The notes under the pieces were generated by a model. It saw nothing but the letters and a program-made list of their open reading frames with translations. It was not told the origin of the DNA and made no database searches. Positions 11,866 through 13,690 of a stretch of DNA of 64,000 nt are shown here, piece after piece. The position numbers were made by a program, and so were the translations under genes. The stretch's first letter is position 1, and each line of letters starts with the position of its first letter. The stretch lies in NCBI GenBank assembly GCA_022143435.1, contig GCA_022143435.1_3941.1. The stretch is one strand, 5' to 3'. The DNA comes from a phage.

Positions 11866-11893
11866 TTGACATAGAAAATTTGGTGAGTATACT
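11866..11893 (+). promoter_or_regulatory. sigma70-like promoter (TTGACA-N16-TATACT)
   Basis: Near-consensus -35/-10 read directly; points into G-rich repeat block 1. Confidence 0.5.
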
Positions 11894-11926
11894 GAGCAGC
11901 ATAAACCAACGGGTACTCACCAGCAT

Positions 11927-12215
11927 CACTTAAGAGCCTTTCTAAGAGGGTTTTTAAGTGAGGTTCGGTATGGTACAGTAGGCTCTGGCTTGGTATGGTT
12001 TGGTGATGTTCGGTGTGGTACGGCGGTGTAAGGTATGGTATGGGTAGTTAGTCTCAGCTACATTAAAATGAGACTTACCTTTTTAAAAGGTCTTTAAAAG
12101 GGTCTTTTAATAAGGTATGGTGAGGTAGGGTTAGGCGAGGTCAGGTTTGGTAAGGTATGGGTGGATGGTAGCAGCCACGTTAAAAATCTACCAAGTTTCT
12201 AAAGAGTCTTCTGTT
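11927..12215. repeat. G-rich repeat/hairpin block 1 (GGTNNGG tracts plus three conserved hairpin modules)
   Basis: Shares about 80-bp near-identical element (12032-12116 vs 13511-13590) and hairpin modules with block 2. Confidence 0.8.
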
Positions 12216-12268
12216 GAGGGTTCTTTACAAACAACTTAACAATCAACTAAAGTGTGGAGCTAAATGCT

Positions 12269-12856
12269 ATGAAACTGTTAAATATCAAAATCACTGGTAC
12301 TCGTCCTTTCCTGAGCCATGCTGATACTCTGTCAGACCCTTTAAACCCTCTGACAAAATATCACAAGTCTCTGTCCAGTAAACGTAAAAAGACTGACGAA
12401 GACTATGCGCTCTTAGCAGAAAGTCAACTGGTAACTTCTTGTTGCTACGATGAGCAACTAGGTTTTGTTATGAATGGTGAGATGATTGAGGCTTGTATCA
12501 AGTCTGGTGCAAAACTCAACAAACTTGGTAAGGTAATTGACCGAGCCATTATGCTGACAGATGTAGTCTTCCCAATGACTATCAAGAACTGTCCAGCAAA
12601 CCCACAAGAACTTGCTAAGAATCCAGATTTTATCTATGCTAAATCTGTTAAGATTGGTACAGCACGAGTTATGAGCTACCGTCCAATCTTCCGTGATTGG
12701 TCTGTAGAGTTTGGTTTGATGTTCGATGAAGAGCAAATTACCCGAGAGGAACTCCTGATGGTTCTGGAAAATGCTGGCAACCTTTGTGGTGTAGGTGATT
12801 GGCGTCCACGCTTTGGTCGTTTTTCTGTAGAAGTTATTTCAGAAGGTAACGTTTAA
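12269..12856 (+). CDS. hypothetical protein
   Basis: ATG 12269 with GTGGAG RBS (track start 12254 is GTG); no motif recognised. Confidence 0.5.
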
Positions 12857-12858
12857 TT

Positions 12859-13299
12859 ATGAATACAAAAGCATTAGCAGCAAAGTTTAGTTACGGTGAC
12901 ACTGTATCACATTCTGAGATGGACACCTTCTTAGGTATTGTGAAGCCAACTTATCAAGGTGACATTGTTAAGTACGAAGATGAAATGAAGGCTTATGCAC
13001 TTACACGTCTAAACCGACTTGAGAAGTTTATTGAAAAGCTTCTTAAAGAAGAGAAGATTTATCTGGTTGCTTCAATGGGTGTTGGTTATCGTGTGGTTGA
13101 ACCTAAGCATCAAGCAACTATTGCAAAACGTAAAATGTCTGGTAAGATTGGTCGTGCTTTAAAGCAAGCCACTCAAGCGATTGAGAATGTGAATACTATG
13201 GCACTTAGTCATCAAGAACGTTCACGACTGATTGAACAGCAAAACCATTTAGCTGCTATGAAAGCTAACATTAACAAGCAACGTAGAAAACCTTTCTAA
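12859..13299 (+). CDS. hypothetical protein
   Basis: 146-aa ORF adjacent to previous gene. Confidence 0.5.
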   Translation: MNTKALAAKFSYGDTVSHSEMDTFLGIVKPTYQGDIVKYEDEMKAYALTRLNRLEKFIEKLLKEEKIYLVASMGVGYRVVEPKHQATIAKRKMSGKIGRALKQATQAIENVNTMALSHQERSRLIEQQNHLAAMKANINKQRRKPF

Positions 13300-13309
13300 G
13301 TTGACTAGG

Positions 13310-13333
13310 AAGCCTCTTCGGAGGCTCCTTTTT
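13310..13333 (+). terminator. rho-independent terminator
   Basis: GAAGCCTC-TTCG-GAGGCTCC hairpin followed by TTTTT. Confidence 0.7.
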
Positions 13334-13690
13334 AAAAGGTCTTTTAAGAAGGTCTTTTAATGAGGTAAGGTGCGGTCTGGTAAGGCATGGTATGGTTGGG
13401 TGAGGTGAGGTATGGGTAGTTAATCGGAGCTACATTAAAATTCGATTACATCACTTAAAAGTCTTCTAAGAGGATTTTTAAGTGATGTTCGGTAGGGTCT
13501 GGTAGGGTGAGGTATGGGTAGTTAGTCTCAGCTACATTAAAATGAGACTTACCTTTTTAAAATGTCTTTAAAAGGGTCTTTTAACAAGGTATTGTATGGT
13601 GTAGTTTGGTTAGGTATGGTTAGGTGTGGTAAGGTAGGGTATGGAAGGATGGCAGTAGCCTTATAAAAAATCTGCCAAATAAGCTATAAA
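13330..13690. repeat. G-rich repeat/hairpin block 2
   Basis: Second copy of the modules in block 1, with compensatory base changes in hairpin stems. Confidence 0.8.

Follow-up and report, generated by a model that had tools for sequence, protein, structure and literature searches.

A type II VIPR locus of the SUSP1 clade predicted in a Felix O1-like myophage

VIPR (Viral Interference Programmable Repeat), described in two preprints of April-June 2026 (10.64898/2026.04.26.720920, PMC13142463; 10.64898/2026.04.26.720927; hereafter the VIPR preprints), is a CRISPR-like, phage-encoded system of RNA-guided DNA silencing. Here we analyze two G-rich intergenic repeat blocks and the two genes that they bracket in a 64,000-nucleotide (nt) stretch of phage DNA (GenBank assembly GCA_022143435.1, contig GCA_022143435.1_3941.1; the whole stretch is hereafter the window). 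Taken together, the identity of the encoded proteins, the design of the repeats and the matches of the repeats to foreign DNA indicate that a Felix O1-like myophage here almost certainly carries a complete type II VIPR locus of the SUSP1 clade. Since this clade has been described before, the feature, though real, is already known.

The central protein of the described systems, Vipr, is a minimal RAMP protein with an RRM core, a glycine-rich loop and a thumb, and it is usually paired with an accessory gene, vap; vap1 boosts protection (VIPR preprints). The guide molecules (vrRNAs), encoded on either side of vipr, consist of 9-16 YNNGG repeats followed by a conserved 3' tail, which is pseudoknotted in the SUSP1 clade (10.64898/2026.04.26.720920). 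One Vipr protomer binds each repeat, with GGY flipped out and sequestered and NN displayed (10.64898/2026.04.26.720920; 10.64898/2026.04.26.720927). The resulting filament binds double-stranded DNA, reading it as xNN-xNN with one skipped base per unit, and forms a gapped R-loop 'triplex' by which transcription is repressed (VIPR preprints); this R-loop forms in trans at the target DNA and not at the vipr locus (10.64898/2026.04.26.720927). In SUSP1, the vrRNAs are expressed as discrete transcripts of about 100 nt; they co-purify with Vipr and silence their targets at the level of transcription, whereas NN-scrambled vrRNAs still bind Vipr but lose function (VIPR preprints). In the SUSP1 clade, natural targets centre on a satellite phage of E. 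coli, with the skipped base on codon position 3, and the published threshold for an NN match is 80% (VIPR preprints).

Proteins, guide modules and tails of the locus

The phage represented by the window belongs to Felixounavirus, and over 11800-13760 it shares about 91-92% identity with Escherichia phages ESCO45, ULIM3 and dune and with many other Felixounavirus records. Two intergenic blocks on the + strand, 11860-12268 and 13300-13768, bracket the co-oriented genes 12269-12856 and 12859-13299, and a DNA ligase gene (10756-11859) directly precedes the locus. The first-pass annotation, made from the letters alone, had left both enclosed proteins unrecognised; both can now be assigned.

The product of the first gene matches chain D of PDB entry 36pp, 'SUSP1 Vipr protein' (36pp_D; phmmer E 3.4e-127), with 5 differences over 195 amino acids as counted from the alignment, and a family profile search likewise matched one solved structure, 36pp (E 1.7e-81). 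Residues H17, K33, R39, E71, M72, K82, G87, K88, R138, C173, D177, W178 and R179 are all identical to those of 36pp_D; the published list of functional residues includes the GGY- and DNA-binding H17, K33, R39, K82, R138, D177, W178 and R179 (10.64898/2026.04.26.720927). The AlphaFold2 model of the protein (pLDDT, the predicted local distance difference test score, of 93.8) finds as its best solved matches in Foldseek only Csm3/Cas7 RAMPs of type III and type VII CRISPR complexes, at a probability of about 1.0, and the glycine-rich-loop motif is conserved across the Vipr family. The second protein is identical to SUSP1 Vap1 at 145 of 146 positions (99%). Neither protein has a match in Pfam, and PHROGs assigns them only to families of 'unknown function' (phrog_4652 and phrog_5926). 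On this evidence the first enclosed gene is identified as vipr, predicted to encode a minimal Cas7-like RAMP, and the second as vap1.

The blocks stand out in composition. Densities of 9-10 GGT per 60 nt occur on the + strand only at 11943-12188 and 13330-13667, compared to a window mean of 0.89 per 60 nt, and in the whole genome of the related phage dune dense GGT tracts are likewise confined to these blocks. Within them GC skew climbs to +0.42 to +0.51; GC content (0.37-0.43) is about equal to that of the flanks. The segments 12017-12160 and 13491-13634 (repeat family D3) are 83% identical over 144 nt, and the loop motif GCTACATTAAAA occurs in exactly 3 copies in the window, all inside the blocks. 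The G-rich repeat blocks of the first-pass annotation are therefore confirmed in both GGT tracts and GC skew, and so are its shared near-identical element, which extends to 144 nt, and its tandem boxes, which are present as the AAGGTCTTTTAA-type pairs described below.

Parsed by register, the blocks resolve into five modules, all on the + strand, with 2 upstream and 3 downstream of vipr-vap1. Each module opens with an AT-rich leader, continues with GGY-NN pentamers and closes with a conserved 34-38-nt tail. Strict 5-nt phase is kept throughout the tracts, which have 16, 9, 10, 5(+2) and 11 units for vr1 to vr5; across all five, GGY is constant and NN variable, and four of the five lie within the published 9-16 units, vr4 having 5-7. 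The leaders contain either two AAGGTCTTTTAA-type boxes (paired at 12087/12099, 13336/13349 and 13561/13573) or a palindromic form. By-eye comparison suggests that the box leaders and the palindromic hairpins (11926-11961, 13448-13488) are variants of one leader element, and the palindromic leader of vrRNA-1 may be a processing signal or a promoter. In order along the + strand, the predicted elements are as follows.

11926..11961, + strand: vrRNA-1 leader, palindromic variant (TCACTTAAGAGCC ... GGTTTTTAAGTGA; inverted repeat I9)
11962..12041, + strand: vrRNA-1 guide region, 16 units by register parse (12 canonical GGY-NN, 4 degenerate)
12042..12079, + strand: vrRNA-1 3' tail, type B pseudoknot by pair counts, then TTTTT
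12080..12113, + strand: vrRNA-2 box leader, two AAGGTCTTT(T)AA-type boxes (repeat and motif scans)
12114..12158, + strand: vrRNA-2 guide region, 9 canonical GGY-NN units (register parse)
12159..12192, + strand: vrRNA-2 3' tail, type C pseudoknot (pair counts; both stems covary with type C')
12269..12856, + strand: vipr gene (phmmer match to PDB 36pp_D)
12859..13299, + strand: vap1 gene, VIPR accessory protein (145/146 identity to the phiSUSP1 gene downstream of vipr)
13330..13363, + strand: vrRNA-3 box leader (repeat and motif scans)
13364..13413, + strand: vrRNA-3 guide region, 10 canonical GGY-NN units (register parse)
13414..13448, + strand: vrRNA-3 3' tail, type B' pseudoknot (pair counts)
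13448..13488, + strand: vrRNA-4 leader, palindromic variant, 20-nt arms 90% complementary (inverted repeat I3)
13491..13515, + strand: vrRNA-4 guide region, 5 canonical units (7 with two degenerate from 13481; register parse)
13516..13553, + strand: vrRNA-4 3' tail, type B pseudoknot, identical to the vrRNA-1 tail, then TTTTT
13554..13587, + strand: vrRNA-5 box leader (repeat and motif scans)
13588..13642, + strand: vrRNA-5 guide region, 11 units, 9 canonical (register parse)
13643..13676, + strand: vrRNA-5 3' tail, type C' pseudoknot (pair counts)

The tails come in four variants that share one H-type pseudoknot topology.

Tail B: stem 1 GTAG/CTAC, stem 2 AGTCTCA/TGAGACT
Tail B': stem 1 GTAG/CTAC, stem 2 TAATCGG/TCGATTA
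Tail C: stem 1 GTGG/CCAC, stem 2 GGTAG/CTACC
Tail C': stem 1 AAGG/CCTT, stem 2 GGCAG/CTGCC

To score pairing, the unique tails of 13 related loci were aligned, with the B types (alignment A2) and the C types (A3) kept apart. Stem cells are paired in 99.1% (A2) and 98.1% (A3) of cases, compared to 23-48% when the partners are slid by 1-3 columns as a control, and each alignment holds three pairs with compensatory changes on both sides. The covariation of AGTCTCA/TGAGACT with TAATCGG/TCGATTA and of GGTAG/CTACC with GGCAG/CTGCC, reported earlier for the window alone, is real and compensatory. Of the three hairpin modules proposed at that stage, the hairpins are real, whereas the number is five and each hairpin is one half of an H-type pseudoknot. 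Only type B tails are followed by a T-run, the other tails having no TTTTT, and at these tails the transcript could end by termination.

Searches for known RNA families and repeat systems gave little. Rfam covariance models run against 11000-14500 at a permissive E-value returned chance-level matches only, none near a gathering score; no description of the blocks was found in the literature on Felix O1 repeats, origins and transcriptomes; and database records annotate them merely as 'repeat_region' or 'DR_4'. The hallmarks of CRISPR are absent: the 'spacers' are GGY-NN tracts and not contiguous, the sole proteins in the unit are Vipr and Vap1, and there is no cas1 or cas2.

Guide targets and the association of tracts with vipr

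Part of the baseplate-hub gene of the window (26553-27350, - strand) recurs in E. coli: a blastn search of 5426 complete genomes of this species finds about 560 nt of it, at about 92% DNA identity, in 474. The E. coli counterpart is annotated as 'phage baseplate protein' and lies inside an island of about 12 kb (locus L136 of our collection, ~5157-17367; further variants L137-L144). Of the 9 variants fetched, 8 have the island inserted in yecE (DUF72) and one has it beside tonB. In addition to the hub gene, the island contains genes for a methyltransferase, a tape-measure protein and a serine recombinase as well as small open reading frames (ORFs), and it is presumed to be the satellite targeted by the vrRNAs.

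We decoded the guides with each GGY replaced by one wildcard base and scanned them against the nine island variants. vr1 matches at 30 of 32 NN positions in L140 5594-5641(-), and at 29/32 in three other variants; vr5 matches at 21 of 22 in both L140 3868-3900(+) and L137 3614-3646(+); and the best match of vr3 is 18/20, at L139 7540-7569(-). When 0, 2 or 3 bases are skipped instead, vr1, vr5 and vr3 score no higher than 22/32, 17/22 and 15/20, respectively, and order-shuffled guides reach at most 23/32, 19/22 and 17/20. The vr1 target lies inside a 107-amino-acid ORF (L140 5423-5746), where by coordinate arithmetic the skipped base falls on codon position 3, and the vr5 target lies 30 nt upstream of a 184-amino-acid satellite ORF. 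A hand tally of guides of at least 10 units from 10 vipr-carrying phages gives the same decoding rule: 21 of 30 reach at least 0.83 at one skipped base, and no other skip length takes any of them above 0.80. Within the window itself, the best self score is that of vr3, 16/20; at exactly 80% it touches the threshold, and it falls among the scores that shuffled guides obtain on the satellites (mean 15.1, maximum 17/20). The other guides score 63-79% against the window, except for the very short vr4 (12/14, 86%).

The association between tract and protein extends well beyond this group of phages. IMG/VR was searched for the exact pattern (GGTNN)7GGT, which with 24 specified bases is expected to be essentially absent by chance, and yielded at least 120 loci, mostly in unrelated viruses. 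The 120 loci analyzed were chosen by DNA pattern alone and comprise 50 with variable NN, often arrays with short conserved punctuation, and 70 that resemble pentanucleotide microsatellites. In one of these loci, L124, the ORF just upstream of the array has a C-terminal motif like that of the first protein of the window. Homologues were sought by tblastn and then by profile search, and among the loci listed the Vipr profile matches at 38 of the 50 variable-NN loci versus 3 of the 70 microsatellite-like ones. The tract is on the vipr strand in 37 of the 38 loci, at a median gap of 30 nt; this orientation test supersedes an earlier crude comparison with the strand of flanking ORFs (27 same, 8 opposite).

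The identification of the locus as VIPR rests on the Vipr and Vap1 matches and the vrRNA architecture, and is supported by three independent results: the tract-vipr link in unrelated contigs, the covarying tail pseudoknots and the matches to the satellite. By extension of the mechanism shown for SUSP1, five small + strand vrRNAs of 5-16 GGY-NN pentamers each would be bound by one Vipr protomer per pentamer; Vipr would sequester GGY and offer NN, so that the filament reads double-stranded DNA as xNN-xNN with one skipped base per unit; and the gapped R-loop 'triplex' formed at the target would block its transcription. We infer that the locus allows this phage to silence a satellite by which it is parasitised.

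Several points weigh against this interpretation or parts of it. The 18/20 match of vr3 is marginal, only one position above the best shuffled guide, and vr2 and vr4 are without a target in the nine satellites sampled (the best score of vr2 is 15/18, and shuffled guides reach 16). With only 5 canonical units, vr4 is under the published range and may be non-functional; it is possibly a truncated or decaying guide, and the truncation may have arisen by recombination within the array. Four units of vr1 carry degenerate forms of GGY (AGT, GCT, TGT and TGT), which may affect binding by Vipr. The role of the conserved leaders is left unexplained by VIPR. Moreover, it is from shared tail genes that the island would be recognized as a satellite of this phage, an argument made in the published work with which the shared hub-gene segment agrees, and the ends and processing of the vrRNAs and their binding by Vipr in this phage are predictions carried over from SUSP1.

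Relatives, flanking signals and tract-bearing contigs

The first enclosed gene is present in 133 of the 259 related records found; about half are without vipr/vap and retain a single degenerate, chimeric module. Leaders and tails are nearly invariant in Moogle, SUSP2, Sf17, BPS15Q2, HY02, vB_SflM_004, dune, wV8 and ASO1B, whereas the tracts of these relatives vary in sequence and length while keeping GGY every 5 nt, with NN apparently free; across 13 related phages NN is hypervariable and GGY conserved. The number of modules per block among relatives ranges from 1 to 3.

Four phages that lack vipr, Si3 (L006 1475-1680), JH2 (L007), RPN213 (L008) and DE17 (L009), retain the ligase gene, an intact promoter P1, one module and an intact promoter P2. 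The lone module joins a first-module (vr1-type) leader to a last-module C'-type tail and is equivalent to 11866-13730 minus 12080-13640. Such a chimera is the expected product of recombination between the flanking tracts, and it is probably a deletion scar. In the three long lone modules GGY is canonical in 6/12, 8/13 and 6/12 units, RPN213 keeps the unusual run AGTAG-GCTCT of the window vr1, and none of the three long orphan guides matches the satellites (0.71-0.73, equal to background). It is improbable, though worth stating, that the chimeric module is instead a retained transcribed element, either loaded in trans by the Vipr of a co-infecting phage or satellite or acting as a decoy that titrates the Vipr of a competitor (an RNA anti-VIPR). 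If this were the case, the flanking vrRNA modules would be recombination handles by which guides and the vipr-vap cassette are swapped between phages.

The following predicted signals flank the modules.

11866..11893, + strand: promoter P1, sigma-70-type, TTGACA-N16-TATACT, 11/12 consensus, reading into the upstream vrRNA block
13311..13335, + strand: predicted intrinsic terminator after vap1, AGCCTCTTCGGAGGCT followed by a T-run
13677..13730, + strand: 19-nt inverted repeat I4 around the -35 of P2 (arms within 13677-13723), followed by a T-run

Upstream regions were read in 13 related phages: the predicted P1, which the first-pass annotation had already pointed out, is disrupted in vB_SflM_004 and intact in the other 12. 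The further proposal of that annotation, that the G-rich strand is the RNA-like strand, is supported. P2 (-35 TTGACA at 13696; 10/12 in the promoter scan) precedes the next gene, and the repeat at 13677-13730 may be a terminator of the vrRNA array that overlaps this promoter. A second inverted repeat, TGGTGAGTA/TACTCACCA (11881/11913; 11881-11921), covers the -10 and the transcript start of P1. Both promoter-linked repeats are kept in the relatives read; possible roles are those of operators or of a terminator that overlaps a promoter. When up to 2 mismatches are allowed, the window contains 44 copies of AAGGTCTTTTAA, compared to 14.6 expected from shuffles, and many of them lie outside the VIPR locus; the leader box may therefore be similar to a regulatory motif of wider use in the phage.

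A number of side observations concern the tract-bearing viral contigs. CRISPR-like VIPR arrays with tracts of 9-14 units are seen in L124 6080-6500, L028 2200-3400 and L074 3220-4400, with 'aaggctaatg', 'aaggaatggtttaatgaatttaattt' and 'ggcagtt' as punctuation and no long SUSP1-type tail. In another Vipr clade (L085 738-860, L120 4851-5100 and L132 918-1040) the tract is followed by a tRNA-like minihelix and not by a pseudoknot, with an acceptor-type stem CTCCCTAC/GTAGGGAG around a T-arm with GGTTCGATTCC; ARAGORN called no tRNA at these tRNA-like 3' ends. The high-GC viral contig L125 (2600-12920) has 24 GGY-NN tracts, far more than the Felix-like loci; they add up to about 260 units and are scattered along 10 kb in several intergenic regions, the longest of about 400 nt. 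Short (GGTNN)8-10 tracts, with NN biased to TA/AA, adjoin iteron-like direct repeats in unrelated viral contigs (L039, L046, L052, L065, L086, L095, L099, L109, L111, L112, L122, L128 and L072/L090/L115), and tracts are found at contig ends in L045, L052, L069, L087 and L088. Low-entropy single tracts could represent other, one-vrRNA VIPR types or something else, such as an origin or a packaging site.

Alternative explanations and comparison with known systems

Given the near-consensus P1, which reads into tracts with a strong excess of G over C on the RNA-like strand, and the replication genes around the locus (DNA polymerase and ligase, with primase and helicase further off), an R-loop replication origin has to be considered, in which the P1 transcript through the G-rich non-template strand would form a stable RNA-DNA hybrid that primes DNA synthesis, as at T4 oriF/oriG and ColE1-type origins. 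The first-pass annotation had offered such an origin alongside structured non-coding RNAs under structural selection; it is the latter that is upheld, in the form of vrRNAs, whereas the G-rich tracts are better seen as guide regions and an origin is very improbable. The blocks are not AT-rich: no unwinding element lies downstream of the promoter, and their GC content does not drop below that of the flanks. Nor is the unit group-wide, about half of the records being without the genes and the modules numbering from 1 to 5. Furthermore, an origin does not predict hypervariable NN with fixed GGY. In unrelated phages, too, such tracts come after a vipr homologue; foreign DNA is matched by the guides once a specific rule of decoding is applied; and in SUSP1 the tracts are present as discrete RNAs of about 100 nt, which are recovered together with Vipr and act in trans (VIPR preprints). 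A literature search turned up no mapping of origins in Felix O1-like phages.

The TRAP site of Bacillus consists of about 11 repeats of (G/U)AG with a free 2-nt spacer, at a 5-nt period, and is bound by an 11-mer ring. The formal likeness to the tracts in period, fixed triplet and free spacer, together with a similar length (9-16 units), raises the prospect of a sponge or decoy RNA that titrates a ring-shaped RNA-binding protein, as do TRAP sites or CsrB-like RNAs, and does not guide. We regard this as the least credible of the alternatives: the triplet is GGY, the partner is a Cas7-like RAMP that forms a filament and not a ring, the VIPR locus has no attenuation context, and the spacers carry target information, with matches of 30/32 and 21/22 compared to shuffled maxima of 23/32 and 19/22. 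In SUSP1, scrambling of NN abolishes function while Vipr binding persists (VIPR preprints). The blocks might also be substrates or scars of recombination that shuffle the two-gene cassette and have no RNA function, in the manner of T4-type PeSL (promoter-stem-loop) cassettes. The patchy distribution of the two-gene unit and the single chimeric module of the vipr-less phages, as flanking-repeat recombination would leave, agree with this proposal, which is nonetheless about as improbable as an origin since it leaves unexplained the GGY-NN code, the covarying pseudoknots, the link with Vipr in unrelated phages and the target matches; moreover, the SUSP1 modules are reported to be transcribed and Vipr-bound (VIPR preprints). 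Gain and loss by recombination is best seen as a side effect of the repeats and not as their function. After the Vipr and target matches were obtained, six other candidates were dropped: two-quartet G-quadruplex arrays, an antisense Rho rut site, Chi-like or RecA-preferred GT-rich recombination sites, primase recognition clusters, pairing with tRNA 3' ends (ACC), and arrays of Shine-Dalgarno-like sequences.

With VIPR as the preferred interpretation, the present analysis contributes no new principle; it is an independent computational replication, on another phage, of the link between tract and protein and of the pseudoknotted tails. It indicates that a VIPR locus can be recognized from raw sequence alone, and it adds the guides of one further member, one of them possibly truncated, as well as likely deletion scars in vipr-less relatives. 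[quoted passage not shown]

Among known systems, class 1 CRISPR-Cas complexes (Cas7/Csm3 on CRISPR RNA) share with VIPR the RAMP fold with its glycine-rich loop and thumb, the polymerization of the protein along a guide RNA capped by a structured handle, and periodic base flipping. In contrast, VIPR has no CRISPR array, no cas1 or cas2 and no other cas genes; its period is 5 nt with three bases flipped, against 6 nt and one in CRISPR; and its guide is noncontiguous, phage-encoded and directed at double-stranded DNA with one skipped base per unit.

The closest counterpart by far is the type II VIPR of SUSP1. Besides the nearly identical Vipr (5/195 differences) and Vap1 (99% identity), the two loci share their position between the DNA ligase gene and the next small gene, promoters P1 and P2, the leader elements, tail types B, C and C', the GGY-NN code, and guides that match the same kind of E. 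coli satellite island. Parsed in the same way, phiSUSP1 has 1 upstream and 3 downstream modules, equal to the number of vrRNAs in the published small-RNA sequencing, as opposed to 2 + 3 here. The present locus further differs in possessing tail B' (TAATCGG/TCGATTA), which is absent from the SUSP1 locus read, in every guide sequence, including a vr4 under the published range, and in its host phage, a Felixounavirus and not a Suspvirus.

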